From assembly GCA_964187785.1 (NCBI GenBank), contig OZ076409.1, positions 37,388,001-37,452,000 of the forward strand: a DNA stretch of 64,000 bases, in the 5' to 3' direction. Shown one piece after another: positions 5,017-64,000 of this stretch. The position numbers and the translations under genes were made by a program. Numbering within the stretch: the first letter of the stretch is position 1; each line of letters begins with the position of its first letter. Under the pieces are notes generated by a model. The model ran no database searches. It was not told where the DNA came from and saw only the letters and a program-made list of their open reading frames with translations. Source of the stretch: Amphiscolops sp. MND2022. Its lineage: Eukaryota.

Positions 5017-5734
5017 TGTAACGTCCACCAGTCAACACCAAATTTTCGATGAAAAATTCGATCAAGAACCAAAAAATGTGCGAATCAAAATGGCCGACCT
5101 GGCAGGTCCTTAAAGCCCATAAAATGAAAGAAGAGAGCACGTGAACAAGAGGAACGATAGGAGATAATGAAGAGAAGAGGCAAAACAACTGATGACATGA
5201 AGATCCACACGGGACAGAATACGACGAACGCTACCCGGTGCTATGTCATCCCTGAGAAAGCAGAACCATGCTAGAATGGCGTGACTGGATCCCCGAAAAT
5301 CTACAAACAGTAACTGTGTTTTCACTTGGGGCTTATCCCCTTTTGTTTTGTTAATTTATTATAATGCATTTTGTTATTTTCCCCATGTCTGACCTTCTAG
5401 GTCGGCATTTCATGCCCATAACTGTCGAAATGACATTTTTCGAATAAACACTCTTTTGGACCTCGGAAGTATGTAGGAGATGGCAGGAATACACTAAAAA
5501 CCCTAGGATACGTTTTTACAGGCTTGTGGGGCGTGTCCGGACTTTGAGAGTGCCGGCACGTCGCCTCGGAGCTCTAACTAGAGGAGCCTCCTTAGACGTT
5601 AGAAAAGTCCCCCATGGAGACCATTTTGGGATCAAAAACTAGTGTCTAGGTATGTAGTAAGACAACGGTCTCCTGTTTAAGCATCCTAGGCATTGTCCCT
5701 CTTCCTAGATGTGCGCCGCTAGCCGGACGTTACA
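5017..5734 (+). repeat. E1 5' LTR (718 bp)
   Basis: TGTAACGTCC...GGACGTTACA (10-bp terminal inverted repeat); direct repeat of 23392-24110. Confidence 0.97.
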
Positions 5735-5750
5735 TCTGGAATAGTTTTTA

Positions 5751-5768
5751 TGGCGACCACAGAGGGAT
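5751..5768 (+). promoter_or_regulatory. E1 primer-binding site (tRNA 3' end complement, probably tRNA-Arg)
   Basis: TGGCGACCACAGAGGGAT is the complement of ...ATCCCTCTGTGGTCG-CCA and is identical in E2. The Arg assignment is inferred from resemblance to GACCAC-type Arg acceptor stems. Confidence 0.85.
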
Positions 5769-8720
5769 ATTTTTCCTTACCGCGTCCTGCGAGGAGCAAC
5801 TCCTGCTTTCCGGCCCTGAAAGGTCCGGATCTAGGAGAAGCTTTTGGGAGAGTCCTAGATTGTTTTTATTGCTTTATTCTAGCCCTTAGGGCCTTGTATT
5901 AGTGTTTTTCCTACGTTTCCTGCATGTTTCCGAGGTCCCTAATCTGAAAAAGTCAGTTTGAAACGGTGTACCCCCTTGTACCTTATCTGTACTCATTAAA
6001 AGAGCTATTCCGGCTTATCCGGAACGTGTTTTAACGGGTTTTCCAGCTTCTTTTCAGCTAATTAGCAATGTACAGGGACTGCGAGGACGGTTTGTGAAGA
6101 CCCGAACTAGCTGAGTGCAGGACTGCAGGTGCTTCACGTCATAGCCTCTTCCTCCCAACCTGGTGCCGATTTACCGAAAACGGCTGGGTTATTTCGTTCC
6201 CTTTACGTTTTCTAGCCCAAAATTAGTATTCCCAGGCCTGTTTTTGCATAAATTAACTGTGAAAAATACCCACAGGGTATTTGCATCAATTATTTTGGGA
6301 CTTGAGCTCGAAAACGCCAAAAAATAACACTAATAACAGCTCAAATATCAAATTTTCCCGTTTTGAAAGCCAAAATTTTATAAAATTGTTTACGGCCTGT
6401 GGGAATACCTGAAAAACGTTCTGTCGGACCTACCAGGTCGAGAACAAAAATTTTTGTTGGGCTGTTTTTCGAAAAAACATGAAAAATTCAGCAATTTCTG
6501 TTCAAAAATAGGCAAAATTGGCCATTTTGACCAATTTTGATAAGGGCGAAGCCTTGGGCGTTTGTTCCCAAGCCTCTTGAAAGGCCAAAAAATTTTGTTG
6601 TTGTGCTTGGTAGTACGCAATACTACTACCAAGACGGTTTTTGACCACCCCCAATATAAATTGAAGTTTTAACATTACTTTTCTTTCATTAAAATAGACC
6701 GGAGCACAGGACCCCATAGACCTGAGAGCTATAACATCAAAAGTAATAATTGAAAGAACCCCACTCCCCTGAATAAAGTAGTTACACCTTCCTACTATAC
6801 TGTTAAAACCATCTCGAACCTCTGGGAACCGAAGAATAAAAAGTTCCTAGGGAAAATACGTGTTTTTCATAGGTGTTCCCAGAGTGTCCAAGGTGTAACC
6901 TAAAATCAATTTTGAGAAACCTTATTTGGAACCTGCCAGGTTTCACTCGCCTATTTTCTGTTAGTAGAGAGTATTAGATTACTAACGCCGAAAACCGCGA
7001 GTGATTCCAACCAGTGGTTGTTGAGAAATAGCCCAAAACGTGCTATTTTTGCGACATTATTGGAACATTGAAATAGTGTTTCAAAGAAAGGTCGAAATCT
7101 CTCCCAGCAGGAGTAGCCCAAAACTTATTGCACCATCGTGTAGACCGCAAAATGTTACGTTAGTGGTGTAATTTTCGTAGCGCTACTGTTACTAGTGATC
7201 GAGAAATCTTAGCCGCAGTTTTGCTCAAAAATGATCCGAAAATGTCGAAAAAATTGAATTTTAGTTGAGCATAGCGCAATACCTAGCAAGTACCCCAACA
7301 CTGAAATTCTTGCATTTTCGTGCACACGGCATTGGATCACGACGATTTGTGCAATTTGAGCAGCCGGCTACTAGCCGAAGCTAAGAAATTGACATTTTTG
7401 TGAATTTTGACCCGAAAAAGCGGTACCCCTGGTACATCAAGGTTTTGTCACTTCATATCGCCAGATACAGATCAAGGCACCTCGCCGCTGAAATTTTCCG
7501 TCGTGTAGGCATAAAGTACGCTCGCATGCAAAATTTCAGGTAGCTAGGACGCCTAGAAGGCGAGTTTAACCACTTTTTGTGAAATTCGCGACATAGCCAA
7601 TTTTTCAGTGAACATTGTTAAGTGGCCGTGACACACACAGAATCAATTTTAGCGCAATCGGAAGCTTATTCCCCACGATTCAGCCGGTGTACTAGACGGT
7701 GTGAAATTTTCAGGTCGCTAGCACCACTAGAAGTAATTTTCACCTTCCCCGGAGGTGCTACTTGATGAGAAAAACAATATCTTGAGCGAATTTTAACTGA
7801 AAACCCATGCATTTCTGATCCTGATACACCCCATTCAGGGCCGAAACGACCTGTTTAGCGTATCGGGGGAATCCTACGCACCTCACCGAACTTATAAAAT
7901 CCGTATAGAGTTAACCCCAAGATCAACGACCTTCCACTAAACGCTCTACGAGACCAAAAGACGGTAACTCCAAAAATCAAAATTCGTTTCTTTCCCGCCG
8001 CTAAGGTCGCCTAGGTGCAATCTGCTCGCCATAACCACCCCGACTCTGCGCCTCGTATACCCTGAGGGTGCGAGAGTGTGCCTGGGAACATCAAAACAAT
8101 CACAGACCAGGTTTGCGGAACACGTAGGGAAACTAGAACAAGGACAGGGAAGATCACCCATGTCGTTGTAACCCTTTCACCCACGAGCCATAAAGCCATA
8201 GACCAGGTCATCACTCGATACTCAACCCACACGTTCCCAATCAAACCCCAGATCATTTCCAGTCCATTGTCCACCCATTGTCCCCGAACCAGCCCACCCA
8301 TTGTTCCCAACCTCCTCACACAAAAAAAAAAAATTTTTGTTGAAGAAAGTCGAACCCTCTAAGTGAGGAAAAAGCAGATGAAATTTTAGTTAACCAAACC
8401 AGCGATAGTGTGCCTAGTGCACTCCACAGGTGTAGAAAGCAATTCAAGCCCATTTAGCAAGTCTTTACCCCAATACACGAAAGACGAGTGACAAAGCGCG
8501 CCAAATAGACTAGTTAGTTAGTCAGTGCAGTTTAGATAGTATCTTTTTGAGTTATTTAGCCAAAGCAAACTCTCCCCATTCCATCACACACCACTTGTTT
8601 TGTGAGGGGAAGGAAGTAGAGAAAAGCCAAAAAACAAAAAAAAATTTTTTTGTTGTTGTTGTCGGCCACATCGTGGAAGCTTCACACGCAGTGGAAGCTA
8701 AAATATTACATTTCGTGGCC

Positions 8721-9170
8721 ATGGAACGACGCGAGACTAACACAACCATAAGCGACTTCCATGCCACCAACCCTTTCAGAAGAAGAACGGAAGCCACAAC
8801 CGAACAAAACGAATGTAGATTAGATTCAGCCATAGCAGCCGTATTTTCAGAAGCTATGTCTGACTTCGTACCGAGCCAGGAGCAAAACGCGGAGATAGCC
8901 GTTGCCACTAGCCAGCTTAACTCCTCGCGAGCCTCCCCCGATAGCACCAATCTACCGGATAATACTGAGAACACTACGCAAAGAAACACCTGGCCTCCGC
9001 TGGAAGTCACTGACTACAGCTTGGAAAATTGGCCTAACTCCAACCAAGGGCCCACCAGTGAGCCCAGCATCGTTGATACTCCCAACGAACAAAACGACAC
9101 TCCAATGACTCCACGGGCGGACCCACAGACGGCGGATGTCGAAAGGAACCCCCGGGTTCCCAGGAGATGA
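8721..9170 (+). CDS. E1 Gag N-terminal segment, out of frame with the main ORF
   Basis: FHATNPF, TWPPL and NWPNSN motifs match the in-frame N-terminus of E3 Gag. The stop overlaps the next ATG (ATGA at 9167-9170). Confidence 0.7.
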   Translation: MERRETNTTISDFHATNPFRRRTEATTEQNECRLDSAIAAVFSEAMSDFVPSQEQNAEIAVATSQLNSSRASPDSTNLPDNTENTTQRNTWPPLEVTDYSLENWPNSNQGPTSEPSIVDTPNEQNDTPMTPRADPQTADVERNPRVPRR

Positions 9171-12100
9171 TCAATAGCGTAGGCGGGAATCCCTTCCGAA
9201 GCGGATATGCGCTACCGGAAGCACCGGCGAAAACGTCGAACGGGCCAGTGGAGAACTCGAAGACAAACATAACAGAGAATCCGTTAAGATACGTTTTTCG
9301 AACGCCACCCTCGGTGAGACCAAAGATTAACTATGCGAATGCGAGTCGAACGTCTCATACGCCAGACTCTCAAGCTAGCGCCGACACCAATCTCGACTCA
9401 ACAATAACCAAAGCAAGGAAGGAAATGCAAACGGTTCGAGAAGACTTTCAGAGTAGTCTGGCTCAGCTAGCTCAAGTCCAGACGAGGCTGGCGAGGGAAA
9501 ACAATGAACATGAGATGCGCGCCGACATGATAATGAGAGACATGGATGAGCTGCGAAAAGGTCTGTTGGAAATGCAAGCGGAAGGGCGACAAAATCAAGG
9601 TCGACTGGAGGCGTCCATGGCATCTCTCAATGATCTGATTAAACAGAGAGGAACTACAGCAGACGCCCGCATGGCCGAGATGTCCGCAATAATGAGGGAA
9701 AGAGACCGCCAAGCAGACGAACGCATGAAAGCAATGACAAACACGATGCAGCGCCGCGACATAGACTCCAATATCCGCATGGCGGACTTAATGATGGCAA
9801 TGCAAGATTTAACATTGGGAGTGAAAGCAATTGTGTCACAAACCCCCGCGCAGCAAGCACAAACGGCGCCGCGGATTCCCCAAAAGTATCAACAAACCGA
9901 AATGCCATCTACAAGCGAAGCCCCCCAACCTCACTATAGGACGGTGGCACAGCACACCGTGGAGCCTCCTAGGCCTCCAAAACTAGTGCCACCCGCGACG
10001 TACAGGCGTGACCTGTCTAAAGCTAGCAAGATGGCTAAAGTAACCCACACGGAGTCACGAGACGCCGGTACGGACCCGATGACTGACCCGCCGTCGTTTG
10101 ACCAGTACGCTCGCGGGACATCAACCTCCGGCGACTTTCATACAGCCGCCGACGAAACGAACATCCGCAGGACCAGCTATTATACGGCCGATTCCAGCGC
10201 AGCATTCCGCCCACCTGCGCGAACGCATACGTTCAGAGACTTTGTTCCGCGGCCAGTGGCCACCAGTACGCAGCGTAAGGTGACAAACAAGCGGAATCTA
10301 GAACAAGGCAAAGGCGAACATAGCGACATTGAAGAAATGCCCTCAATGGCAGAAGAGACCCCAGACACACCGAGAACTACCCAACGACAAGCACTAGCGG
10401 AAGCAATATCTACGGCCATGTCTAAAGGCTTGGAGCCACTGCTCGCCGCCAAAGAATCTAAAAACAAGCCCACGAAATATAGAGGAACCCGCGACGGAAA
10501 CGCAGATGGATGGATGATGTTGATGAAACGCCATTTGGAAAAAGCACACCCGAAGGCGACCCCCCTCGATAAAGCATGGACAATAATTGAGTATCTAGAG
10601 CATGAAGCCAGAGATTACATCACGAATAAGTCCGAAGCCGAGAGGGACACGGACGAAAAAGTATTCGCATTGCTGGCGCGTCGCTTTGGGACAGGCTCCA
10701 GCAAGATCCACATCCAACAGCAATTTAGAACCCGCAACCAGAATAGCGAGGAGGACTACATGCAATACCTTGACGCCCTCGAAGGCTTGCGTAGTCAGGG
10801 TTACCCCAATGAAGAGGTGACAGTTCGTCGATACGAAATCATGCAAAGATTCATTGAGGGAGTACGCAACTTCGAACTAAAAAGGAACCTCGCGCTAATG
10901 TATGCACCGGAACAATACGTGGAGACCCCGCCAACAGTGGAAGCCCTCCGCTTCACGGTACAACAATACTTACGCATGCGTGGCTCCACTCGCTCGGACA
11001 ACTACCCAATGATGCCCCCTCCACAACAACAAGCCAACATCCAACAACCTAATCAATCTCCGGTAGCACCCGCGCCTGCCCAAAAAATGCAACAACAACA
11101 GCCTCCCCAACCAGCAGCATACCAACAACAACCCATGCCACCGGCAGCCTATCGACAACAACCCCAGAGGGCGTGCTTCAACTGCGGAGACCCATCGCAC
11201 TTCGTGGTGGACTGCCCCCTGAAAGACCGTGCACGGAAGCCGGTGCAACAGCAAGTGAACTCCTGTCACACGAACCCGACTGGTAGTTGGGTGTGCCCCT
11301 CCCAGCCACATGGCTTGAACTATGATGTTTTCCCAGCATCCCTGCCAACCCAAGGCACAGTTCCCTTCTGCATCAATTGCGGCCGTACTGAGCACTCGGC
11401 GTCAGAATGCATGGCCTCGGAGCAAATGAGTCACGAAGAACAAATCCGTGCAGCGTGGTATGCTCCTGCACCAAGTCAATTCGATGGCCAGAGCCAAGAC
11501 GACCAAGTCCGGGTAATATCGATAGCGGAAGATGGGGGTCCCTCCCGACCTGTAGTAGTCACTTGTGGCGAGAAACAAGTACTCACCACGCTGGAGGCGC
11601 CCGCCCCAGATTGCACAGAAACGCTTATCTCGATACACTTGCTTCTCTCGGCAGAACAAAAAACGCGACCCACGCTGACGCTATCGCAACTAAAAGAGGA
11701 ATTATGCAGAAACGTAAAATATACTATCGCAGCGCGACCGCTCCCACATTTCACGAGAGAAGACGAAACGAAGCTGGCCCCAATACAGAAAGTCAAAACC
11801 GTTTCTCCGGTGCCGGTAGCCATTAACGTAGACGGTGTAGATATGAAATTTGACGCTATCGTAGTCTTAGAAGGTCACTTCCCTCAGGGATTGTACTTGG
11901 GCCGCCAGGAGTTGCGATGTTATAACATCGGAGTGCAAGATGCCCAGGGGGAGGCTCGCATTGACGAACGAGCATCCCTGGTGGTTGCCTTTGGCAACAC
12001 GATCCAGGAACCAATACCCTTGTACGGGATGATTGACACCGGTTCCGGTGTCTCCATTCTCTCCCTCAAGGCCTATCAAAAGATTGCATCACCCCACGCC

Positions 12101-15100
12101 TTGAGCCTCCTACCATATGACATCCAACTGTATGCCGCCAATGGTAAAACCATCAACACCATCGGAATTGCCGAAAATGTTAGCTTCCAGTTGGGCGGAC
12201 ATACCCTTAGAACCAATTTCATAGTCATTGCCGATCACCTAGGTGCCGAGGACTTCTTACTTGGCAGGAACTTCTTGCGCACTTACAACGTTCTCGTGGA
12301 CCTGACGGCCATGAGGGTCACCATACGAGACCCCAAAGCGCCACGCCACTTCAAACCCGTCCATGAGGTAAGTGACCATGAGCCATCCCTAGTGATATCC
12401 ACCGAAAGAGTAGTCCTAGGCCCTTATGAGCGCAAACTGGTGCGAGCCCAAGTTATTTCTCAAAAGCACAACGAATACCTTTTCCGAAACGTAATGATTC
12501 GCCCCCAGGGGGTATATAAACGATCCCCCTTTGTCTCAGAAGATACATTGACGTCTGTTGGAGATGAAGGCATTGTCTTCATAGCCGTACGAAACACTAC
12601 CCCCTCTGAAAACGTAACCATTCAAACCAAAACTGTCCTCGGTAAGGCAGAAACTACAAACTTTGTGTTGCAACCTGTGGCTGCCGATACGGCAACCGAA
12701 ATTGATAAACCTTTGTTTGAACAAGTTAATAGAGTTTATACCGATGAGTGGTTAAACGAAACGAGTTCCGAATATAGTTCCTTTGCTCAAAATTTTTTGT
12801 CCTCTACTGAGATATCTGAAGAAGGATTGTCGGAAAGCGAGAGGCGTGCTCAGACTGACCCACAGTTACTGAAACCTATACCAGGTCCAGACCTCTCTTC
12901 TGTCCTTTCTTCATGGGGGGAGGGAGCGAGAGATCAACTAGCAAGCGTCCTGAGCGAGTACGATGATCTTTTTATGAAACATAAAGCTGACATAGGGAGA
13001 TGCAAAATAGCCAAACATCGTATAGAACTAGAGCCGGAAGCTATCCCGCATAGAGAAGGCGCTCGGCGCATGTCCCCAGATAAGGCAGCAAAGGCTAATC
13101 AAGAGGTGCGGAATTTGCTGGCCCTTGGCCTAATTCAACCCTCCTATTCACCGTGGGCAAGCGGAATAGTCATGGTCAAAAAGAAAACAGGCGAACTTCG
13201 CTTCTGCTGTGACTTCCGACCGCTCAACGACGTAACGGTCAAGGACGCGTTCCCATTGCCCAGGATTGATGAAAGTCTATCCCGGATAGGCAATGCGAAA
13301 ATTTTCACAAGTATTGACCTAGCGTGGGCCTTCTGGCAGATACCGCTAAAGAAGCGCGATAGAAGGAAAACAGCATTTGCCTGCGAACTGGGCTTGTTCG
13401 AATGGCGGCGCATGCCCTTTGGGCTATGCAATGCATCCGCCACATTTCAGCGCTCCATTACACGAGCCCTGCAACGGATCCATCAACGACACGGGAGTGT
13501 CGTCATGGCTTACATTGACGACATAGTCATCGCCACGGAAACCATAGAAGACCACATCGTACGAATCAAGGAAGTATTCGAGTGTCTCCGAGAGGCTGGA
13601 TTCAAAATGCGTGCCGAGAAATGTGATTTCATGCGCACGGAGACAAAGTACCTGGGGCGAGTGGTGTCCTCGGAAGGCATCAGACCAGACCCCGAAGCAA
13701 TAGTCAAAATCCAAGAATGGATGCCCCCGAGAAACAGAGAGGAGCTTCAGAGCTTCCTAGGGTTCGCAAACTATTACCGGGACTTTGTACCGTTTCATGC
13801 AGCCAAGGTGCAACCCCTGCAGGAGTTACTCAAGAAGAGTCAGCATTTCCACTGGGAAATAAAACACCAAGAGGCCTTCGATGCAGTAAAGGAGGCACTA
13901 GCGAATGCGACCGCCTTGGCAGCCCCAAATGAAGACGGACGGTTCGTGCTCGATACCGATGCTAGTGCGGTAGCGATAGCTGGAATCCTGCACCAGGAAC
14001 AAGAACACAATGGGAAAACTATTTTACGGCCAATAGTCTTCGGGAGCAAGTCCCTGACAAAAACGCAACTGAACTATGGAGCACCCAAGTTGGAAATGTA
14101 CGCAGTATTTTACTTCATAGAGAAATTCCATTCGTATCTCGCAGGCCGAGAGTTCACGCTCCGCGTGGACAACCAGGCCCTGTCGTGGCTCAAAACGTAC
14201 TCCATGGACCAAGCCATGATAGGTCGCTGGATAGCCCGTCTGGATCAATATAACTTCAAAACGATCCACCGACCTCGCACACAGCATCGAAACGTGGACG
14301 GCCTCAGCAAACGGACCAACGACTATGTGCACCGAGAGAAAATCCTTGAGAAGTTACCGGAAGTGAGTGAAGGATTCAACTTCATGACCAAAGAAGACTA
14401 TGAAGCACTTCCCACCGTGCCATACTTTGACAAACACGGACGCCCAATACCAAACCATCCAGAGCTCCCGCCGGAAGCTCGAGCCCAACTCCCACTGCTG
14501 TATATCTTGGGAAAAAGGCCCAAAACGAGCTTGCAAGAAACCCCAGTGAATGATGCCCCGTGGTACCCCCAAATACAGTGGGAAGCGACACCCACCACAG
14601 ATGAGGATCACCGACCGAGTCACATCCTCAGCATCACGACCGAAGTGCCACCTGCACGCCTAGACACTGGAGAACCTGATCCTGTGCTTGAAGGGATGCC
14701 ACCCGAATGCCGAAGGCAAGCCCACGCCCTTAGAACAGTCGGAACGGAGCTGCACGAACACTTTCTGACTAGACGTGGCCTCAAGGACCTGCACCTAGCA
14801 CAAAATAGGGACGTGCACCTCCTAGCGCTTAGGAAACTCATGAACGGCGAACCACTAGAAGACACAATGTTCCCCGAAGACGTGCAGGACTTCGCGCGAC
14901 GCTACTTCCATCAAAAGAAAGACCTGCTCTTCCTGAACCCAGACGACATCCTCTGCGTCAACTACGTTCCGCAACAACGTGCGCTGCACGTGCGACCGTG
15001 CATGATAGTCATGCCACAACTATACCAACACGAGATTCTGTATAGGGCACACGACGAATCGGGACATCAGGGCGTAGGGAAGGTGCTAGCAAGAGTACAA

Positions 15101-18100
15101 GAGCGACACACCTGGCCGGGCATCAAGCGTGACATAGTCAATCACATCAAGCACTGCTTAACCTGCCAGCAGACTAAACACCCCGCCGGGAACCCCTGCT
15201 ACCCCTTGCAGAACATTAACAGCAGCAATTTCAATGACCTAGTACAATTCGACCACCTCAAACTATGCAAGACCGAATCGGGAAACACCGGTCTCTTGGT
15301 AATGATAGACCACTTCACGAAATTCGCCGAAGCTGTCCCGTGTGCCCACGACGAATATGATGCTCAAACCACAGCAAAGATCATCCTTAATAAATGGTTC
15401 GCCAGGCACGGCACTCCAGCACGCATGCAGTCCGACAATGCCACGAATTTCACAGCTGAAATCGCACAAGAGCTAATGAAGGCTTCGCAAGTCACTAAAG
15501 TGACATCCACACCAGCGCATCCCCGAGGAAATGGACTCGTGGAAAGGCAGAACCGAACGTTACTCACACTGCTCAGAGTCTACACTTCGCGACGAATGCA
15601 GGATTGGGATGAGCACGTTGATGGAATCCTCGGTGCGTACAATTCAACTAGACACGCAACCACGGGATTCTCTCCCTATATGCTCCAACATGGAGCCGAA
15701 AAATCCATTCCCTTGTCGTTCATCTACCCAGAATTTGCTGCGCGAGGATTCGACTCCAAAGAGGAATTCGTAGAGCACCTTCTAGCCAGACAACAGGAAA
15801 TCCATGAACTCGTCAGAAGAAATACACACCAAGCACAGCTACGGCAAAAGCTGAAGTTTGACCGCCACCTGAAGGCCAAAGCGCACGCCGTAGGCGATGC
15901 GGTGTGGGTATTCTGCCATATCATACCCAAGGGTGGCACCCGCAAGCTGATTCGCGCATGGCGTGGACCCCACAAGGTGACTGACGTGTTGCAGGACGGA
16001 CGATTATATGTGCTAGACACTGGCCAAAAGGTCCATTACGAAAGATTAAAAAAGCACGTGCCTGCCCCTTGGGACTGGGCCGCACACCAGCCCTTTGGGC
16101 CGGATCAAAACGTAGCCATCATTGCCGATCCGTACGTAGAAGAAAGCAATGAGGAGATAGCGTCCGACATCTCTCAAGACTCTTTTCTACCGGAACAACT
16201 TCCGGAAGCATCGTTCGAAATGGAACCAACAGGATCGATTCCACCTCGTACCATTCAGACTCGTACCCAAACGGCACTCGAGCAAGGAATACCCCGAAGA
16301 AGATTCAGTCACTTCGGATACCCCTCTGACTCAGATTCCGAAAGAGAAGAAAATGAGCCGCCGATCCAGAGCCCACCACCGCCAGTAGTGTTCCCCGACT
16401 TGGACGACCTAGAACCACTGTACTCCGACCAGGAGGAAATTCAGCCAGCCGTACCTACAAGTCTGATACCATCACCCTCAGGGACCTCGGCCCCACTACT
16501 ATCCAATCCGTCCCTGACGGATACCCTGAGTAACTTTCCCTTGTTTGGCCCCCAATTGGAGGACCCAATCGACCCGATAGAAATTAAACCAAAGTCAGGA
16601 ACTGAAGACGAAGAAGAGATAACCTATCACAGTCCAAGCCATTGCTCAACACAACCCGATACCACGAATCGCAGAGGACGGCCTCGAGGCCGACCACCAG
16701 GTCGAGGACGACCCCGCGCCATACCATCCAGTAGAACCACGACATCGTCGCGAACCCAAACCGCACGATCCAGAAGAGGCCCTAGGACAAGAATGAGCAC
16801 TCGTGCACCCCCTCGAAGGCTAGACCAAGCAATGACTCTGCCAGAAATACCCGAAAGCCAACAACCACCGGAGGTCCAGAATTCAGAACCGAGACCATCA
16901 TCGCAAACATCACGATATCAACTGCGAGCTAATAGAGCACCACGATACAAGTGTGGAACCTGTGGTTCCCGCAACTGTAGTTGCGTCAAGCATCTGACTC
17001 GCGATTCACCGGACAACCGATTGGCCCGGGGAGCGGTAGTCCCTGCCAGGGATCTCCTGATAGCCAGGACACATTGTCACCCACAACATGAGATCTTAAC
17101 CGTACAAGCCCAGCGAGAAAAAGTGGAGACACCCCCGCTAGTACACCATTTGATCATCACGGTAGAAAAAACTTTCACTAGTGTGGAACGGGAAGTGATA
17201 CCACCGCTCGAAGAAACACAAATAGCAATGCACGCGACATCTCCCTCCGACTGCCCAACTTACCGATTCAAGGAATGGACACCACCCCATCGAGGCGGTC
17301 TAGAATTCACCCTACATGCCATCATACCGCCCTTGCCACCCTCGATGACGTTCGGCGAGCTAGCGAAAGAGGATAGTAGCACGGAGATGATTCGCTGTAT
17401 CACTGCACACCAACTGTGGGAGAAATATCGCATTGCCTCCCCGCCGGGAGACATATACCAGCCCACCAATGGATGGTGGCTACTCGTCACCTCTCTAGAC
17501 GCAACGACATTGGTATCCCCCACAACTCTATTAATGTGCTTAGAAAGCTTGCGTACTGTAACAGAACCCGAGAACACGCTCTGTTTCCACATGGCCGACA
17601 TTTATCGTGGCAAGTTCCTAAGCCAACATTGGCTACAATTAATAGCGGTCATCTTCTGCCGACAGGCGAAGATACACTTCTTGGATCGACAATCTTATAC
17701 ACCGGAAAAACCCGTCACAGTTAGCGAAGCACTCTCGATAGTACACGATTGGTCATCTACCAACATGGGAGATAGACCGCTACGCCGAACCGTCTGGGAA
17801 GACCGAAAAGCAATCTTGCAGCATTTAGCACCCCAACCCACTGATGATCAGAGCAATACCACCGGCAAATGGCTCATAACCCAGCCCAAAACCAGACCGA
17901 ATTACCTACCTTGGATAACTTATGACAATACAGATATCCTGCAGGCACCTGGCACTCTGATACTATGCTGCCCTGCGGATTTGCTCTCTTACTCTGCCAC
18001 GATCCGTTACGTTATTCGCGAATACGGTCAAGAAAACATATTTCGCCTAAGACCGTCAGTTGGCACCGCAATTCGCTTAGTCCGCTCGCCAACTGCACCC

Positions 18101-18388
18101 TGGAATAACGAAATCTTCCTTCTATGTACCAGAGCATCGAACAAGCATCCACTCTTACATGAAGTACTCCATGCGTGTCTGACAAATTTGATAACCCAGC
18201 TCCATCGAAACCACATTACCAGAATCCACTTGCCCATCTATGATCCCGAGCGATCGATGAACCTCCTACCAGCCTGGTACGCCACGCTACGCGACCACTT
18301 TGCAGACCACAATATTGCAATAATTTTGCACGATCGCGTCTATGTCACGATAGCATCGGTTACCTCAGCCAATTTTGGCGGTAGTTAA
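9167..18388 (+). CDS. gag-pol: E1 Gag-Pol polyprotein (3073 aa): capsid, 2x CCHC, pseudo-protease + protease, RT, RNase H, integrase, long C-terminal tail
   Basis: CFNCGDPSHFVVDC and CINCGRTEHSASEC knuckles; MIDTGSG and LLGRNFL protease motifs; MPFGL and YIDD RT motifs; DTDAS/KLEMYA/RVDNQAL RNase H; HHCC, D..D(35)E and WRGPH integrase motifs. Confidence 0.96.
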   Translation: MINSVGGNPFRSGYALPEAPAKTSNGPVENSKTNITENPLRYVFRTPPSVRPKINYANASRTSHTPDSQASADTNLDSTITKARKEMQTVREDFQSSLAQLAQVQTRLARENNEHEMRADMIMRDMDELRKGLLEMQAEGRQNQGRLEASMASLNDLIKQRGTTADARMAEMSAIMRERDRQADERMKAMTNTMQRRDIDSNIRMADLMMAMQDLTLGVKAIVSQTPAQQAQTAPRIPQKYQQTEMPSTSEAPQPHYRTVAQHTVEPPRPPKLVPPATYRRDLSKASKMAKVTHTESRDAGTDPMTDPPSFDQYARGTSTSGDFHTAADETNIRRTSYYTADSSAAFRPPARTHTFRDFVPRPVATSTQRKVTNKRNLEQGKGEHSDIEEMPSMAEETPDTPRTTQRQALAEAISTAMSKGLEPLLAAKESKNKPTKYRGTRDGNADGWMMLMKRHLEKAHPKATPLDKAWTIIEYLEHEARDYITNKSEAERDTDEKVFALLARRFGTGSSKIHIQQQFRTRNQNSEEDYMQYLDALEGLRSQGYPNEEVTVRRYEIMQRFIEGVRNFELKRNLALMYAPEQYVETPPTVEALRFTVQQYLRMRGSTRSDNYPMMPPPQQQANIQQPNQSPVAPAPAQKMQQQQPPQPAAYQQQPMPPAAYRQQPQRACFNCGDPSHFVVDCPLKDRARKPVQQQVNSCHTNPTGSWVCPSQPHGLNYDVFPASLPTQGTVPFCINCGRTEHSASECMASEQMSHEEQIRAAWYAPAPSQFDGQSQDDQVRVISIAEDGGPSRPVVVTCGEKQVLTTLEAPAPDCTETLISIHLLLSAEQKTRPTLTLSQLKEELCRNVKYTIAARPLPHFTREDETKLAPIQKVKTVSPVPVAINVDGVDMKFDAIVVLEGHFPQGLYLGRQELRCYNIGVQDAQGEARIDERASLVVAFGNTIQEPIPLYGMIDTGSGVSILSLKAYQKIASPHALSLLPYDIQLYAANGKTINTIGIAENVSFQLGGHTLRTNFIVIADHLGAEDFLLGRNFLRTYNVLVDLTAMRVTIRDPKAPRHFKPVHEVSDHEPSLVISTERVVLGPYERKLVRAQVISQKHNEYLFRNVMIRPQGVYKRSPFVSEDTLTSVGDEGIVFIAVRNTTPSENVTIQTKTVLGKAETTNFVLQPVAADTATEIDKPLFEQVNRVYTDEWLNETSSEYSSFAQNFLSSTEISEEGLSESERRAQTDPQLLKPIPGPDLSSVLSSWGEGARDQLASVLSEYDDLFMKHKADIGRCKIAKHRIELEPEAIPHREGARRMSPDKAAKANQEVRNLLALGLIQPSYSPWASGIVMVKKKTGELRFCCDFRPLNDVTVKDAFPLPRIDESLSRIGNAKIFTSIDLAWAFWQIPLKKRDRRKTAFACELGLFEWRRMPFGLCNASATFQRSITRALQRIHQRHGSVVMAYIDDIVIATETIEDHIVRIKEVFECLREAGFKMRAEKCDFMRTETKYLGRVVSSEGIRPDPEAIVKIQEWMPPRNREELQSFLGFANYYRDFVPFHAAKVQPLQELLKKSQHFHWEIKHQEAFDAVKEALANATALAAPNEDGRFVLDTDASAVAIAGILHQEQEHNGKTILRPIVFGSKSLTKTQLNYGAPKLEMYAVFYFIEKFHSYLAGREFTLRVDNQALSWLKTYSMDQAMIGRWIARLDQYNFKTIHRPRTQHRNVDGLSKRTNDYVHREKILEKLPEVSEGFNFMTKEDYEALPTVPYFDKHGRPIPNHPELPPEARAQLPLLYILGKRPKTSLQETPVNDAPWYPQIQWEATPTTDEDHRPSHILSITTEVPPARLDTGEPDPVLEGMPPECRRQAHALRTVGTELHEHFLTRRGLKDLHLAQNRDVHLLALRKLMNGEPLEDTMFPEDVQDFARRYFHQKKDLLFLNPDDILCVNYVPQQRALHVRPCMIVMPQLYQHEILYRAHDESGHQGVGKVLARVQERHTWPGIKRDIVNHIKHCLTCQQTKHPAGNPCYPLQNINSSNFNDLVQFDHLKLCKTESGNTGLLVMIDHFTKFAEAVPCAHDEYDAQTTAKIILNKWFARHGTPARMQSDNATNFTAEIAQELMKASQVTKVTSTPAHPRGNGLVERQNRTLLTLLRVYTSRRMQDWDEHVDGILGAYNSTRHATTGFSPYMLQHGAEKSIPLSFIYPEFAARGFDSKEEFVEHLLARQQEIHELVRRNTHQAQLRQKLKFDRHLKAKAHAVGDAVWVFCHIIPKGGTRKLIRAWRGPHKVTDVLQDGRLYVLDTGQKVHYERLKKHVPAPWDWAAHQPFGPDQNVAIIADPYVEESNEEIASDISQDSFLPEQLPEASFEMEPTGSIPPRTIQTRTQTALEQGIPRRRFSHFGYPSDSDSEREENEPPIQSPPPPVVFPDLDDLEPLYSDQEEIQPAVPTSLIPSPSGTSAPLLSNPSLTDTLSNFPLFGPQLEDPIDPIEIKPKSGTEDEEEITYHSPSHCSTQPDTTNRRGRPRGRPPGRGRPRAIPSSRTTTSSRTQTARSRRGPRTRMSTRAPPRRLDQAMTLPEIPESQQPPEVQNSEPRPSSQTSRYQLRANRAPRYKCGTCGSRNCSCVKHLTRDSPDNRLARGAVVPARDLLIARTHCHPQHEILTVQAQREKVETPPLVHHLIITVEKTFTSVEREVIPPLEETQIAMHATSPSDCPTYRFKEWTPPHRGGLEFTLHAIIPPLPPSMTFGELAKEDSSTEMIRCITAHQLWEKYRIASPPGDIYQPTNGWWLLVTSLDATTLVSPTTLLMCLESLRTVTEPENTLCFHMADIYRGKFLSQHWLQLIAVIFCRQAKIHFLDRQSYTPEKPVTVSEALSIVHDWSSTNMGDRPLRRTVWEDRKAILQHLAPQPTDDQSNTTGKWLITQPKTRPNYLPWITYDNTDILQAPGTLILCCPADLLSYSATIRYVIREYGQENIFRLRPSVGTAIRLVRSPTAPWNNEIFLLCTRASNKHPLLHEVLHACLTNLITQLHRNHITRIHLPIYDPERSMNLLPAWYATLRDHFADHNIAIILHDRVYVTIASVTSANFGGS

Positions 18389-18719
18389 GAACACGTCTCG
18401 CTCTCTTCTTGGCAGATCAGGCCACTGGCCTTTTGCATTGCCTTTCGTAATTTTGAAGCGCCTTAAAATTTTAACAAAGCCGCGCCGATAAGCGCAAATT
18501 TTAGTAATAATCACTAGAAACTTTTTAACCTCGTATTTGTGTGTTCGTCCTAAAAAGTTTGACTGCCCACCCGTTTATGTAATGTTTTATCTCCAACTGT
18601 GACTTGTTTTTCAGTTTTGTCCTGTTGCCTCGCCTCTGCGCGGCCCCCCTACTTATCACGCCAAATCAGTCTTGCCATCACAATCTTCGGTGCTAAATAT
18701 TCCTTTATCATCGTTTCCA

Positions 18720-21700
18720 ATGGACCCATCTGCGCGACACCGCCTGCCTACACCCCAGAACGCTGCGCGTGCCCAACCATCCATAAGGAACGATCCACCT
18801 CCAATGATGAGCGAAATAGATGGTCGAGTCGACCAACTAGCTCTTGTCCAAGACACTCTACTAAACGGAGTGACACCCACAATGATCGCTGGCTTTGCCA
18901 TGATCATCGCCCAAACCCAAGCCCAGGCAGAGTACCCTGATGTTAGCTTCACCATCACCAGCCGAGTCGGCCCGATAGAACGCTCTGCCACTTTTCGCGA
19001 CGGTACCTGGCAAGGGTATGACTTGACCCACAGCCTCATAGATCCTCGCTCCCACTTAGTCTATGGAGAGCCTACTAGGCCTCCCATGGACCAAGAACGA
19101 TCACTCCGCATTTCACAATCAGCACTACAGACGCAAACTACGACCCCGTTGCCCTCACCGCACCCGGTGCAATTCAGCTGCACACTGCCAATCATGCCAC
19201 CCCCAGTGCTAACACCGCCCATGCCCCTGGCTTCGGAAGGCATTCGATTACTCACCACCCCATCTTCTACCTTCATGCCTCCATCTACCTTTCAGGGGGG
19301 AGGGGTGCAAGTAGACAATACAACAAGTGCTGCCCTGAGCGAAGAACAGCCCAGGAGAACGGTGACGTTCAAGGACTCATATGAAGAATTAACTCAAACG
19401 TCCTCCAGAACCGAATCACAAGTCTCGGAACCTCTACAAGTCTCAGAACCGGCCAGTCTAGTAGGCTTCCAAATGGACCCACAATTCCGAGAACGTCAGC
19501 GAGAACAACAAAAGGCTGAAAGTAAGGCGGCCAACACTGTGGTAGACCTCCGGGAGAAAATTAAAGCTGGAAAGCGAGCCAGAGAGGCAACCACGCAAAG
19601 TAGACAATCGAGCTCGACCAGTATCTCGCAACCCACGTCTACCTCACCCACACAACCAGAAATAAGGAGACCTAGAATAACGCACGAACTCCTAACACAT
19701 ACAGAAAAACGGCAGCTGGATATCACTGCACGCGACGCACTGCGTCTCCAGCGGGAAATACCAACCACAACGTCACCAGAAGACCCTCTACGACAGAAAT
19801 TCGAGATCGCTACGGGAACTGGGGACCTCGCCACAAGGCAGAAAATAGAGAAAGCCACAGTGGGAGTACTCTACAATCGCCCCGTCAAGAAACCCGTGTT
19901 TACTCGAGACGGATGCCCCCCATGGTTTAACCGCATGCGAGCAGAACTGGAGAGAGTAAACTCATCATACATGCGTGTTCCTGACAACTTCCTCCGACAG
20001 CGCCCTGGCCGCTTCGACGAAGACCGCTTGCGAACTAAAAACTATGCGAGGGACCCCATTACAATCCTGCCCATGGGAAAGGACCTTTTACAGAAAACCA
20101 GAATAGCCTTCTTCGTCGACTCGACGATGAAGTCTTCATTCAACTCCCACAATACCCTCATGGACGTCAGAATACTGAATATGCCCTGTACAACACTGAA
20201 CGAAATGGCAGAGGTGACCGATAAAATATTCACCCAAGCGGGAACAGAGACTATCCCACTACCTCCGTTGTTAGTATATTCGAATGTGATAGACCACCTC
20301 GCTCTGCGAGGGACCCTGGAATTCTTCCGGCCAGACCATGAAAGGTTTACCGAGGGGTTCATCACCGACGAAGTTACCAACTACGTGGAGACGATGGCGA
20401 ATATTGCCCAAGCTATGCGCAGAAGGAAAGCTACCACTGGAACGGTATTTATGTCACCTCCAGGCTACGTGCACCTTCCCCGGACCCTTCAGCAATTCTT
20501 GTACCTAATAATGGAGGCAGCGTACGCAAGGGATCTGGCTTTCTACATTGTGGCCCCTAATTTACGCATCAGCAATAATAGCTGGCGCCCCTGTGAAGCC
20601 TCATACCCAGCCTTCATTGCTGAAGTCTCAAAGGCCCTTCAATCATACGTCGGTTACCGCGGCAATTCCCAAATGGTGGCAGATGAAGCAACAGCATTCG
20701 ATTATGGGATGGAAATGGCTCGTCGATCATTGAACGAGCGTGGAGACCGAATCGTGAATGATCCAAATGAAAGTGAACGCAATAACCTGGTGGATAACCT
20801 CTGGTTTGAACGCCGGGACGAATCGACTATAGACGAGAAAACGCATGAGCCCAAGTTCCACAAGGAACTCACGAGTCTGATGAAGGAAACCGAAACGATT
20901 CAAAGTGATAGAAAAAATTCCTCTATCTTCCCTATAGCACAAATATCATTGGACGCGGAACCTGGGCAAAGATCACCCACATTAGCCATGTTGTTGATAC
21001 TAGCTCAAGATATTGTACGAAGAAATATTCAAGAGCCGACACACACGTACCAAACATGGCACGATCAACTACGAGAACCTCTGGGCCAAGTCGCGGATCG
21101 ACTAGGCATAACATTTCCCGTATTTCTCCACAATATCTCTCCCTTCTGGCTTCCTTCCCTGGTACAGGCCGAGTACGGCCTGGATGAGCAGCGAATGCGA
21201 CTATACATGGAGGCCATGGAAAGAGCGACCGTTAGTGAAGTGCTAGCGTATCTGATGGCCGTGGGGTTGACCATGATGTACCGAGGACCGTCAGCCCTCA
21301 TACAAAAGTTCGTGCTCAACAAGGGAGGCTCAGCCCTGTTCAGCTTCCTAGTCTTTTCGCAGAATCAAAGAAGTTGGATATCTGCGCTCATTGAAACTCT
21401 GGACCCAGCGGGTTCCTTAAAGTTAAAAGCGCAACTAAACTTAAACATTCAAGCACTTCTAGTGTGGATTTACTCCACCTGGGTCAATGTCTCTGGCATT
21501 ATGCATCCTCTGGATGAGTGCCCAGCTATTAACCGAGACCCCAATCAGCTTCCAGGGTTCCTGTTCCCTGCACAAATTGCAACGTTGATGCTCGTGGAGA
21601 CAGAGGACCTGATACCCCTCATTGCTCCTGTGATCTGGCCTATCTTCGGCGCAGTTATGGCCCTGCGCTATCCAACGCAGGCCCTGCGAGTGGCAGCGGT

Positions 21701-22805
21701 GAGCCCATCCCTCTCGATTCTACACTTCGTGACCTCTAATGGGCCCCTTCAGGGTCCCACCTATCAATCAGTGATACACAGCTTTGCCAACTTGCGACCT
21801 CCCATGGCATACACCGTAATCAAAGACCGCCAACAAGTGGAGCACAACTATCTTACGTTGATCAAGGCGCGAGCACGCAGCTCGCTCCCTTTGCCAATGG
21901 AAATCCACCCGGTAGTTTGGCTACATACCCCCCTCAATCCAAATAATGGAGCAGTGGCGACGTTTGACGGGTGGGACGTGCCAATTGTCCTGCGTATCTT
22001 GAGAGCAATTATCCAAAGATTGGGTGGTCGTAGAAAAGGAGAAGAACCTACTAGGTTATTATATCCCTATGCGTGTGACACTTCCAGAGTATATTGTGCA
22101 AGAACAGAACCCCGTGAGCATACCGCCAGAATCTTAAATACCATTACGTGTTGGGCCCAGCCAGAACTCGTGGACCTCGCTATACACCAGACCTTCCAAC
22201 AGCTGCCAACAACCATTCCAACAGTAGCAAAAGAACCAAGCAGGAAAGATTTGCCCGTGAATACTGACGTTCGCAGCAACCCGCGTATGGCGCTAGAGAT
22301 ATTCGTACGTCTGCATGGTCTCCAGCGAGAACGCACTCGAGCTGTGGGCGAAGAATACGCTAGGGGAAAACGAACGTTCAAACAACTATTCACCCAATAT
22401 GGTCACCAAGAATTAGCGGACGGCCTGCCGAACTTGGAGTCAATCGAAGCCATCCCAGGGATCAGCGATTTGAGCGAAGCTGCCTCTGGCAGCTCTCGCA
22501 CCGTCCTTCCCACACCCCACATCATTCAAGACACCGATGAATTATTGGTGGAAGGGGTACAAGATGATGTGCCAAGCGTCATGCCACCATCAGAGGAACC
22601 TATGACTGACAACAACTTCACGCTCTCTGATGCCACTACTCCTGTAAGAGACGAAGTGGAGACCAATATCTTGAACATGGAGGCAGCGGACATAGAGTCA
22701 GAGCTCAACAACTTACTGACCATAGATGAAGAATACCAAAATACGGTGAACGCCATGGGCAGCACCTCCATGCAAGAAGCCCCACAGAACCAGCTGTTGG
22801 AGTAA
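18720..22805 (+). CDS. E1 ORF2 (~1360 aa from ATG): extra ORF with SGNH/GDSL-hydrolase-like domain, function unknown
   Basis: Intact 4-kb ORF between pol and the 3' LTR, with clear homologues in E2 and E3. Motifs IAFFVDST / VRILNMPCTTLNEM / LLVYSNVIDHL / VFMSPP. Confidence 0.85.
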   Translation: MDPSARHRLPTPQNAARAQPSIRNDPPPMMSEIDGRVDQLALVQDTLLNGVTPTMIAGFAMIIAQTQAQAEYPDVSFTITSRVGPIERSATFRDGTWQGYDLTHSLIDPRSHLVYGEPTRPPMDQERSLRISQSALQTQTTTPLPSPHPVQFSCTLPIMPPPVLTPPMPLASEGIRLLTTPSSTFMPPSTFQGGGVQVDNTTSAALSEEQPRRTVTFKDSYEELTQTSSRTESQVSEPLQVSEPASLVGFQMDPQFRERQREQQKAESKAANTVVDLREKIKAGKRAREATTQSRQSSSTSISQPTSTSPTQPEIRRPRITHELLTHTEKRQLDITARDALRLQREIPTTTSPEDPLRQKFEIATGTGDLATRQKIEKATVGVLYNRPVKKPVFTRDGCPPWFNRMRAELERVNSSYMRVPDNFLRQRPGRFDEDRLRTKNYARDPITILPMGKDLLQKTRIAFFVDSTMKSSFNSHNTLMDVRILNMPCTTLNEMAEVTDKIFTQAGTETIPLPPLLVYSNVIDHLALRGTLEFFRPDHERFTEGFITDEVTNYVETMANIAQAMRRRKATTGTVFMSPPGYVHLPRTLQQFLYLIMEAAYARDLAFYIVAPNLRISNNSWRPCEASYPAFIAEVSKALQSYVGYRGNSQMVADEATAFDYGMEMARRSLNERGDRIVNDPNESERNNLVDNLWFERRDESTIDEKTHEPKFHKELTSLMKETETIQSDRKNSSIFPIAQISLDAEPGQRSPTLAMLLILAQDIVRRNIQEPTHTYQTWHDQLREPLGQVADRLGITFPVFLHNISPFWLPSLVQAEYGLDEQRMRLYMEAMERATVSEVLAYLMAVGLTMMYRGPSALIQKFVLNKGGSALFSFLVFSQNQRSWISALIETLDPAGSLKLKAQLNLNIQALLVWIYSTWVNVSGIMHPLDECPAINRDPNQLPGFLFPAQIATLMLVETEDLIPLIAPVIWPIFGAVMALRYPTQALRVAAVSPSLSILHFVTSNGPLQGPTYQSVIHSFANLRPPMAYTVIKDRQQVEHNYLTLIKARARSSLPLPMEIHPVVWLHTPLNPNNGAVATFDGWDVPIVLRILRAIIQRLGGRRKGEEPTRLLYPYACDTSRVYCARTEPREHTARILNTITCWAQPELVDLAIHQTFQQLPTTIPTVAKEPSRKDLPVNTDVRSNPRMALEIFVRLHGLQRERTRAVGEEYARGKRTFKQLFTQYGHQELADGLPNLESIEAIPGISDLSEAASGSSRTVLPTPHIIQDTDELLVEGVQDDVPSVMPPSEEPMTDNNFTLSDATTPVRDEVETNILNMEAADIESELNNLLTIDEEYQNTVNAMGSTSMQEAPQNQLLE

Positions 22806-23355
22806 GGGAGTCCTCTGGACCCCCAAGACTGTTAGAACACAATTGAGCATAAAAGACCTTATCATCAAGGTACTGATGCCAACTCTTGATTTTAGTTGTG
22901 CTACACCATCTTACTGGTGCTGAAAACTTTCAGTGCAATAAACCTTGATTTCTGAGTTTTGTTTGATGTATATTTTACTATGCTACCAATGCAACAATGC
23001 AATATAGCTACATCCTCTGGGCAGGTCCCGGTTCGGTGCCCTCCCGTTTTGATTTGAATTTAAAACTTCTACTAAGCCCAAAAGTTGTTGTTACTCACTT
23101 GGCCGCGCAGGGGCCCAATTTTAAAGAAAGAAATTTTAACTTGAACTGAGTGATTAGTGAAAAAACCTTTTTTTTAAAAAAAATCCGACTGTATAGTTTT
23201 TAACCTAAAAATCAGTGCTTTTTGAATTTGATGGCTTTGGAGTGCTAAACATGCAGTAGCGAAACGAAAGGAATAGTAATGTGAAATCAACATAATCTTG
23301 ATGTAAGACCTTTCCTGTAAATCTCAGAGTACCCTTTGGGTGCGAGCATCCTCTC

Positions 23356-44060: not shown

Positions 44061-44098
44061 CTTGACGGGGACGTCAAGACTAGACCCCGGGGAGTGTA
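44061..44098 (+). promoter_or_regulatory. E2 pre-LTR hairpin and short purine tract
   Basis: CTTGACG-GGGA-CGTCAAG perfect stem-loop, then CCCCGGGGAGTGTA before the TG. Confidence 0.7.
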
Positions 44099-63593: not shown

Positions 63594-63820
63594 TTCGCTT
63601 GCTTGATTTCTTGCGTTTCTATTGAGCAAAACTTTTCTCTGGTCCTTCGCTCACTCCTTCCCCTCAACAAATGAAATTAAAGTTAAATTAAATTGGAAGT
63701 CGTGGTGTCACTTCCTCAAGAGTTTTAACTAAACTATTTTACTATTAAGTTTCTGAGCTTGTAGCTTGTGCCTGCCCTCTAGGTTCTAAGTCAAGATTAG
63801 CTGGCTTTTACAAACTTCAG

Positions 63821-63880
63821 ACTCAAGGTTACATACACTAACTCGAAATTACATGCACTAACTCAAGATTACATGCACTG
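63821..63880. repeat. Three copies of a 20-bp unit in the E3 leader
   Basis: ACTCAAGGTTACATACACTA / ACTCGAAATTACATGCACTA / ACTCAAGATTACATGCACTG. Confidence 0.7.
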
Positions 63881-64000
63881 GTGCTAATCACCACTAATCA
63901 AAACTGAAAGGTTTGCTTCCCCACTAACTGGAGATAGATATTCTACAAAATTCAGTAAATGAAGTTTTTTTTTTGATGTCCTACTTAAGGATGTTAAAGC

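Follow-up and report, generated by a model that had tools for sequence, protein, structure and literature searches.

Three giant LTR retrotransposons at the locus

The window analysed here is a 64,000-nt stretch of the Amphiscolops sp. MND2022 genome (assembly GCA_964187785.1, contig OZ076409.1, positions 37,388,001 to 37,452,000). Self-comparison and scans for open reading frames (ORFs) revealed three retrotransposons with long terminal repeats (LTRs) in this window, E1 (19,094 bp), E2 (19,209 bp) and E3 (20,651 bp). They share one layout, in which a Gag-Pol polyprotein with a doubled protease and an integrase tail ending in macrodomains is followed by a second reading frame, ORF2, with an SGNH-fold domain. 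In agreement with a preliminary description of the window, E1 and E2 are of nearly the same size despite largely unalignable LTRs, which have a single 27-bp match in common. The description had also proposed one layout with a single Gag-Pol frame; the layout stands, but in the window copies the frame is split into two (E1), three (E2) and five (E3) pieces.

E1 (5017..24110; all E1 and E2 features lie on the plus strand) is flanked by the target-site duplication (TSD) GAT at 5014-5016 and 24111-24113. Its 718-bp 5' LTR (5017..5734, TG...CA) and its 3' LTR (23393..24110) are 99.86% identical; the LTR pair of E1, like that of E2, differs by about one base. The 5' LTR is followed by a 16-nt spacer (5735..5750), composed of a purine-rich half with predicted pairing to U5 and a subsequent T run, and by the primer binding site (PBS, 5751..5768), which is complementary to the 3' end of the host tRNA-Arg(TCG). 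The 5' piece of gag (8514..9167) lies in another frame than the rest, E1 being broken at this point. The main Gag-Pol frame (9077..18385, 3,103 codons) encodes, in this order, Gag with CCHC knuckles, a pseudo-protease, the protease, reverse transcriptase (RT, with the motif YIDD), RNase H (RH), integrase with a GPY/F-type motif, and the tail. ORF2 (18720..22805) comprises 1,361 codons counted from the first ATG, close to the roughly 1,400 residues claimed earlier, and a polypurine-tract region (23379..23392) adjoins the 3' LTR.

E2 (25623..44831, TSD GTG) has LTRs of 733 bp (25623-26355 and 44099-44831), a tRNA-Arg PBS at 26372, Gag-Pol in the pieces 28571-30295, 30379-34668 and 34497-38498, and ORF2 in the pieces 38617-40932 and 40823-43081. 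E3 (TSD TTG) lies on the minus strand and extends from 46998 through the window edge at 64000 on to G000:C1:37455648, that is, 3,648 bases past the edge. Its LTRs are about 725 bp long (3' LTR at 46998-47722), ORF2 is found at 48217-51072 and 51076-52527, the five Gag-Pol pieces lie within 52737-63650, and a tRNA-Lys(TTT) PBS is located at +16 from the LTR. About 900 bp at 59807-60708 separate two of the Gag-Pol pieces; a possible insertion here could account for part of the extra size of E3.

The internal part between the LTRs measures about 17.7 kb, and across the family ORF2 spans 1,360-1,490 codons (4.1-4.5 kb). Leaders of 2.4-3.0 kb separate the primer site from the first gag ATG (5769-8720 in E1, 26390-28735 in E2). 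A comparison of the E1 and E2 leaders showed no common splice donor and no alignable block beyond the PBS and one 26-bp match.

Termini, target sites and priming

All resolved copies terminate in TG...CA, with LTRs of 708-735 bp. Among 63 copies examined genome-wide, 47 insertions were resolved and 16 were not; the resolved set consists of 37 of 40 copies found by protein matches, 7 of 20 copies picked by primer-site position on contig 1, and the three of the window. A 3-bp TSD was observed in 43 of the 47. The 37 protein-match copies with both ends resolved have TSDs of 3 bp (33 copies), 4 bp (one) and 5 bp (one) or none (two), while all seven resolved copies of the primer-site set, which includes a fourth subfamily with a 15-nt spacer, have 3 bp. 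As a 3-bp match is expected by chance in about 2% of copies, judged from base composition, this frequency is far beyond chance. The middle base of the TSD was A or T in 28 of 32 tallied cases, and the target is not fixed. A longer TSD masked by misplaced LTR borders was considered and rejected, as the bases outside the 3-mer vary. Of the non-canonical ends proposed for these elements, the 3-bp TSD and the spacer are indeed unusual, but the termini themselves are canonical.

The PBS offset of 16 nt that had been described holds for E1, E2 and E3. A pattern combining the LTR end with the primer site gave 3,426 matches in the 1.07-Gb genome and none with the reversed control; the family thus has at least 3,426 LTR-primer-site junctions. 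Of the first 100 of these, 58 had a spacer of 16 nt and 39 one of 15 nt; lengths of 11, 13 and 18 nt were each seen once. The PBS of E1 and E2 is complementary to the host tRNA-Arg(TCG), for which 255 pattern matches were found, mostly in one tandem array, whereas the different PBS of E3 matches the host tRNA-Lys(TTT), with 644 pattern matches in the genome. One subfamily has consequently changed its primer tRNA and kept the spacer, a point missed in the preliminary description, and the spacer length has been preserved through both sequence change and primer switch. The tRNA-Arg primer is presumably reminiscent of 412/mdg1.

Both primer tRNAs are highly amplified in the genome. The tRNA-Arg(TCG) array (G000:C9:57537789-57576392, L122-L126) has a unit of about 173 bp, and some of its copies read a TCA anticodon and are labelled SeC by ARAGORN; tRNA-Lys(TTT)-type 3' ends occur in a tandem array with a unit of about 193 bp (G000:C7:5219967-5255960).

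In all 63 junction reads, the base directly after the U5 CA is a T. A predicted U5-spacer stem reached z values of -2.2 to -3.5 in five of six E1/E3-type sequences, where paired changes are visible. Pairing probabilities for the first eight spacer bases were 0.43-0.95 (22 sequences, no control), and the T run was predicted to be open. In standard LTR reverse transcription, the bases between LTR and PBS become the outer end of the cDNA and usually number 0-3 bp. Because minus-strand synthesis begins at the PBS, the linear cDNA is expected to carry 15-16 extra bp at its U5 end. The spacer was kept at none of the resolved right junctions and must therefore be either removed or never completed; as the extra 15-16 bp are never found at integrated junctions, the integrase most likely cuts after CA.

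A pseudo-protease and a macrodomain-tailed integrase

The domain preceding the D-T-G protease (12002..12346 in E1) aligns to it with an hhalign probability of 81% and an E value of 1.2e-5, and the alignment score of 36.9 compares with at most 15.3 in 20 column shuffles. This doubling was weak in a first alignment (E 0.016) and became clear with a deeper one. The first, degenerate retropepsin copy (11552..11956, identified by hhalign) has no D-T-G, and the Asp is missing in 15 of the 15 rows shown, distant relatives included. The doubled protease proposed earlier is thus real, but the lack of a catalytic Asp in its first copy had gone unnoticed. Between protease and RT, the stretch 12347-12676 (Gag-Pol residues 1091-1200) is conserved and probably beta-rich, with a ratio of nonsynonymous to synonymous substitution (dN/dS) of about 0.15. 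A likeness seen by eye only suggests that this stretch may be a remnant of dUTPase type, such as has been noted for Burro.

In the predicted model of the tail, the integrase is followed by an acidic linker, AT-hook-like motifs, a Cys cluster and two alpha/beta domains. The mean predicted local distance difference test score (pLDDT) of the model is 54, with both alpha/beta domains mostly at 60-90. Motif inspection placed three AT-hook-like GRP motifs of E1 at 16673..16717, and a C-x2-C-x4-C-x-C cluster common to E1, E2 and E3 (16952..16984 in E1) may form a zinc site, the model having low confidence here. The second alpha/beta domain (17894..18337) is a macrodomain of the TARG1/DarG/Poa1p type, with a Foldseek E value of 3e-9, a Z score of 16.5 and a root-mean-square deviation (rmsd) of 2.9 over 140 residues, and a profile match to TARG1 at E 5e-13. 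The first (17339..17683) was tentatively recognised by structure match and by hhalign to copy 2 (probability 63%, E 7e-5). By itself it reached a Z score of 7.5, against the SARS-CoV macrodomain II; the tandem matches macrodomains 1-2 of PARP14 with a Z score of 11.2. Copy 1 is therefore likely a degenerate duplicate. The AT hooks, the Cys cluster and the macro-like fold of the preliminary description were all recovered, with two macro-like domains instead of one.

Where the TARG1 row has its two glycine-rich loops and the G-L-D Asp, E1, E2 and E3 carry other residues, and an invariant Arg of copy 2 is aligned with the first Lys of the TARG1 T-K-K motif. We take the glycine-loop, G-L-D and T-K-K residues of TARG1 to be catalytic. 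Copy 2 thus resembles TARG1 (C6orf130), DarG and Poa1p in fold and in detectable sequence, but differs in being part of a tandem, in its fusion to an integrase and in the replaced ligand loops. Relatives at 52-57% RT identity have one C-terminal macrodomain; the fusion is hence older than the family, and within the set of sequences compared only this family shows the duplication. Pfam assigned no family to the tail, and the ESM Atlas gave no leads for it.

Three public protein clusters (P0404, P0282 and P0298; 2,541-3,068 members) represent a sister family of very high abundance, which has a pseudo-protease, a linker between RNase H and integrase that is much longer, and one C-terminal macrodomain. 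Sister-family proteins (P0282, P0376, P0429) were not found in the host genome among the 28-150 candidates scored per query.

ORF2 contains an SGNH domain with altered catalytic residues

The ORF2 model, built from 142 rows, has a predicted template modelling score (pTM) of 0.50 and shows a confident domain at residues 454-688 (19962..20666 in E1), followed by a helical region. This domain has the SGNH fold (Z score 12.4, rmsd 3.4, 179 residues aligned), and the listed top 50 matches are all SGNH-type entries; the best Foldseek E value was 5e-3. Pfam identified no family in ORF2, its profile found nothing at E 10 among PDB sequences, the ESM Atlas gave weak leads only, and a viral fold library gave weak SGNH rows only.

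At the fold level the SGNH assignment made earlier is borne out, while the unusual catalytic residues had been overlooked. The block I Ser is kept in 29 of 33 rows and the block III Asn in 29 of 36, whereas the block II Gly and the block V Asp-x-x-His are absent. Arg occupies the position of the block V His in 33 of 42 rows and in 20 of 20 genomic reads, as it does in E1.

A splice-acceptor-like pyrimidine tract with CAG, recognised from the nucleotides only, precedes ORF2 in all three window copies (18590..18614 in E1). An acceptor-like CAG was also found in 10 of 10 E1-type and 9 of 10 E2-type fetched copies, the remaining one being not resolved, which suggests a spliced RNA. Searches among 50%-identity representatives returned 607 homologues of ORF2 at E 0.001, of which the best 150 are mostly fragments. 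Short contigs yielded a homologue of 1,187 residues (P0474), which suggests that ORF2 exists outside the families of this genome.

Copy number and open frames in the genome

The copies were collected genome-wide, and the layout extends beyond the window. Tail protein queries yielded 3,566 and 3,604 candidates, and 150 of each were scored. By hand count, about 65 of the best 150 matches to the E1 tail sit in open frames of 3,237-3,340 codons; on this reading of the frames, a single Gag-Pol frame of about 3,250-3,300 codons is the state of the family. ORF2 was uninterrupted in six of ten E1-type and six of ten E2-type fetched copies, a share that is biased upward since these copies were selected for long Gag-Pol frames. 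LTR pairs are 97.8-100% identical in the resolved copies, which points to recent activity. The mitochondrial COX1 of the host is best read under genetic code table 5, which marks it as an invertebrate. Related loci were absent from viral contigs, and metagenomes contained two distant matches at 30-36%.

Selection on the accessory domains

The accessories had been proposed to be selected parts of the element and not passengers, and the comparison of E1 with E3 was made on this point. The proportion of synonymous differences (pS) is saturated at 0.69-0.93 in all regions except the short Cys cluster (0.41). The nonsynonymous distance (dN) amounts to 0.03-0.05 in RT, RNase H and integrase; it reaches 0.20-0.23 for the macrodomains and 0.31-0.45 for the ORF2 core, alongside saturated synonymous sites (pS 0.72-0.85), and neither the tail macrodomains nor ORF2 have a dN/dS near 1. 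In unsaturated pairs, which have one member in common and are not independent, dN/dS was 0.06-0.09 (E1-type) and 0.02-0.08 (E2-type) in the SGNH domain and 0.06-0.15 in the helical region of ORF2. Each macrodomain gave 0.11, versus 0.79 for the acidic linker. The value for macrodomain copy 2 is biased downward, since the copy-2 protein served to rank the copies; this bias spares copy 1 and the E1-E3 pair. Judged from these substitution patterns, all accessories are under purifying selection.

That the tail and ORF2 are passengers is accordingly very improbable. The near-neutral acidic linker (0.79) and the imprecise estimate for the Cys cluster (0.36-0.58) are in line with such a view, but it conflicts with the low dN/dS of both macrodomains and of the two ORF2 regions, SGNH and helical, and with the homologues outside the families of this genome. 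For the folded domains it is refuted by the low dN/dS.

Other repeats between the elements

An older repeat occurs at 4457-4878 and, in opposite orientation, at 44832-45240 (71% over 428 bp), with its second copy adjoining the right end of E2. Between E1 and E2, an inverted 69-bp match (24787-24855 versus 25541-25609, 81%) perhaps marks the termini of a small DNA element. A 15-bp unit is repeated four times at 45490-45549, between E2 and E3.

Affiliation and comparison with known elements

The Pol order is PR-RT-RH-IN (PR, protease; IN, integrase), without a tether domain. Against solved relatives, RT-RH matched Ty3 (E 2e-103), a caulimovirus (2e-48) and foamy virus (4e-34). The knuckle is CX2CX4HX4C (zf-CCHC), and the GPY/F-type motif reads W-R-G-P-H by inspection. 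In an RT-RH tree of 30 rows (93 before redundancy reduction), none of them from named clades, E1-E3 form one supported group, with the single-macrodomain sister group adjoining. The family is best filed in Ty3/Gypsy (Metaviridae), from which it departs in TSD length and primer geometry. With Ty3/Gypsy it shares the Gag-PR-RT-RH-IN order, the CCHC knuckle, the GPY/F-type motif, TG...CA LTRs and tRNA priming, Ty3 being the nearest solved RT-RH. It differs in the 3-bp TSD (4-6 bp being typical, although not a taxonomic definition), the 15-16-nt LTR-PBS spacer, the pseudo-protease, the tandem macrodomain tail and the ORF2 of 1,360-1,490 codons.

Troyka elements are defined by 3-bp TSDs and CG...CG ends, other LTR elements having 4-6 bp (PMC12440569). 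The 3-bp TSD, a usually single Gag-Pol frame and invertebrates among the hosts are common to Troyka and the present family (PMC12440569, PMC11673190). However, Troyka has CG...CG ends, a CX2CX8-10HX4C knuckle, no GPY/F motif, the RT motif IADD/VADD/LADD seen in Troyka/Kuafuorterviruses (PMC11673190), LTRs of 100-400 bp and an internal part of 1.5-7.7 kb, as opposed to TG...CA, CX2CX4HX4C, a GPH motif, YIDD, 708-735 bp and about 17.7 kb here. Since only the 3-bp TSD agrees among seven defining traits and the other six differ, membership in Troyka was rejected.

The preliminary description had assumed that Gypsy elements measure 5-12 kb and carry at most a chromodomain or env, which proved too narrow. 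Ogre reaches 16-25 kb and Burro (GYPSM1) more than 30 kb (PMC6431247); both are, like the present family, very large, high-copy Gypsy-type elements with added domains. Burro, though, carries an in-frame env, BIR, BCL2, MATH and ankyrin domains at more than 30 kb, compared with 19-20.7 kb here, and none of these five gave a Pfam match in the window elements; the review (PMC6431247) does not contain the word 'macro'. In Ogre, LTRs of 1.9-6.5 kb account for the size, as against 708-735 bp here. GDSL/SGNH extra ORFs are known from LTR elements of bdelloid rotifers, among them Vesta, which likewise has such an ORF behind pol (PMC5408684). Vesta ORF3 is about 1.3 kb long with S, G, N and H intact, in contrast to the 4.1-4.5 kb of ORF2, in which neither the Gly nor the block V His is present and a large helical region is added. 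The assumption is too narrow also in view of the Troyka TSDs (PMC12440569) and of fish epsilon-like endogenous retroviruses, for which macrodomain ORFs have been reported, in the form of additional ORFs and not of a Gypsy integrase tail (PMC4977317). A further parallel is the OSK domain of Oskar, an SGNH fold without a catalytic triad (PMC10792757). Its structure (5a4a) matches the ORF2 model with a Z score of 8.8, but it ranks 42nd among the fold matches and is not the closest, and ORF2 keeps the Ser that OSK has lost; we regard it as an analogy, homology not being shown.

Giant size, SGNH extra ORFs, retroviral macrodomains and 3-bp TSDs thus each have precedents, and what appears new is their combination. 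The full combination was not found in the literature searched, the scope of which did not include Repbase, Dfam, GyDB, Repbase Reports, subscription journals and supplements, the likeliest places for such a family; excerpts of PMC13524379, PMC3601003, PMC8003356, PMC9911081 and PMC6451197 contained nothing on this layout. Of the undescribed system suggested earlier, the combination has accordingly held up so far, but it is a Ty3/Gypsy variant and not an undescribed kind of element. That the family is already catalogued in Repbase or Dfam under an uninformative Gypsy name, with its architecture noted, seems rather unlikely. Its thousands of copies, the public protein clusters with up to 3,068 members and the entry of Burro into Repbase years ahead of its paper (PMC6431247) speak for this, whereas a 2025 Troyka paper by a Repbase curator gives other LTR elements TSDs of 4-6 bp (PMC12440569).

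Discussion

In our reading, the family is a Ty3/Gypsy lineage of high copy number that was active recently and has an end chemistry of its own; it would use catalytically disarmed domains as binding modules. We assign this reading a probability of about 0.6. Anatomy, primers, folds and selection can be read from the data; the figure covers, taken together, long processing, splicing, macrodomains that act as readers and an ORF2 that acts as a scaffold. During replication, the spacer would fold back on U5 and keep the primer site open. The integrase would then cut past CA, with the long flap removed in repair, and attack the target with a 3-bp stagger that may have evolved independently of Troyka. 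AT hooks, Cys cluster and tandem macrodomains would tether the integration complex to DNA or to ADP-ribosylated chromatin, the macrodomains serving as readers and not as erasers, while the pseudo-protease may regulate the active protease or pair with it. ORF2 would be translated from a spliced subgenomic RNA, and its His-less SGNH domain together with the helical region might form a non-enzymatic scaffold that binds RNA or lipid and places the particle in the cell, similar to the OSK domain of Oskar and not as an envelope or an active esterase.

Several observations weigh against this interpretation. Macrodomain copy 1 is weakly supported, and more distant relatives retain glycines in the first macro loop, so that the loss of activity may not be clade-wide. 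Four of the 47 resolved insertions have no 3-bp TSD, and the U5-spacer stem was not significant in 10 E2-type and 15-nt sequences (35-nt window, z -1.2 to +0.4). Roughly half of the ORF2 model has a pLDDT under 70, and the His position was set by motif spacing (PMC10792757) and predicted secondary structure, with no atom-level superposition. A second His, in the block III D-H pair, is kept in 30 of 38 rows, which makes a relocated active site possible. Moreover, ORF2 has a single hydrophobic segment, which scored 2.2 for E1 and 1.7 for an E2-type copy and leaves room for a membrane role.

Several parts of the proposed mechanism have competitors. The spacer may never be part of the integrase substrate, if RT skips the U5-spacer stem or plus-strand synthesis stops at the T run, followed by ordinary short processing. 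The predicted stem and the unpaired T run would suit such a course, as would the inverted repeat, which reaches just 1-2 nt past CA at both ends. However, each new copy inherits a subfamily-specific spacer, so that at least the plus strong-stop strand copies it, and the length stays fixed at 15-16 while the sequence varies. We favour long processing by the integrase over skipping or early termination, which we consider possible but the less probable course. For the tail, a counter-defence eraser that strips ADP-ribose from element proteins or cDNA in the manner of TARG1 and DarG is favoured by these two being the nearest folds, by the alignment of an invariant Arg with the first Lys in T-K-K and by the retention of a C-terminal macrodomain in relatives at 52-57% RT identity. 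Such an activity is hard to reconcile with the replacement of both glycine-rich loops and of the G-L-D Asp in E1-E3, and the fusion behind AT hooks at the integrase C-terminus, the place of a chromodomain, fits tethering better; we regard an eraser as unlikely.

A similarly doubtful alternative gives ORF2 serine esterase or acyltransferase activity, with a catalytic His relocated to the D-H pair of block III. It would act on membranes, a role that has been proposed for GDSL ORFs in Vesta and in non-LTR elements. This alternative agrees with the conserved Ser, the Asp preceding it, the Asn and the D-H pair, with a dN/dS of 0.06-0.09 in the SGNH domain, with PC-esterase and NXPE4 clusters that weakly resemble ORF2 at the feature level (scores 0.83-0.84), and with the ZfL2-1 esterase (4c1b) among the fold matches (E 0.09). 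Yet ORF2 has neither the block II Gly nor the block V D-x-x-H, and all four residues are intact in Vesta ORF3 (PMC5408684). More far-reaching, and in our view improbable, is that the elements form a separate, host-spanning LTR branch. Its integrase would trim the 15-16-bp extension, cut with a 3-bp stagger and read ADP-ribose marks to choose its sites, and an Oskar-like pseudo-esterase would replace the envelope and carry the RNA to germ-line or stem-cell granules. If this were true, the 3-bp stagger would be a second origin besides Troyka.

For the genome of the host, the family may account for up to about 65 Mb (6%), an upper estimate in which all 3,426 junctions belong to full-length copies. 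In plants, elements have TSDs of 4-6 bp and sizes up to 24 kb, and the TSD range of the finder may exclude 3 bp (PMC6317226); finders that expect longer TSDs, or that limit the distance between LTRs to near or below 20 kb, would miss or truncate the present family. Besides Troyka, it would represent an independent second instance of 3-bp target duplications among LTR elements, and its fixed, long LTR-PBS gap leads to a direct prediction on cDNA ends and integrase processing. A TARG1-type macrodomain on a Gypsy integrase is a candidate targeting or counter-defence module and links retrotransposition with ADP-ribosylation, while a strongly selected, apparently non-catalytic SGNH protein bears on the role of retroelement esterases.

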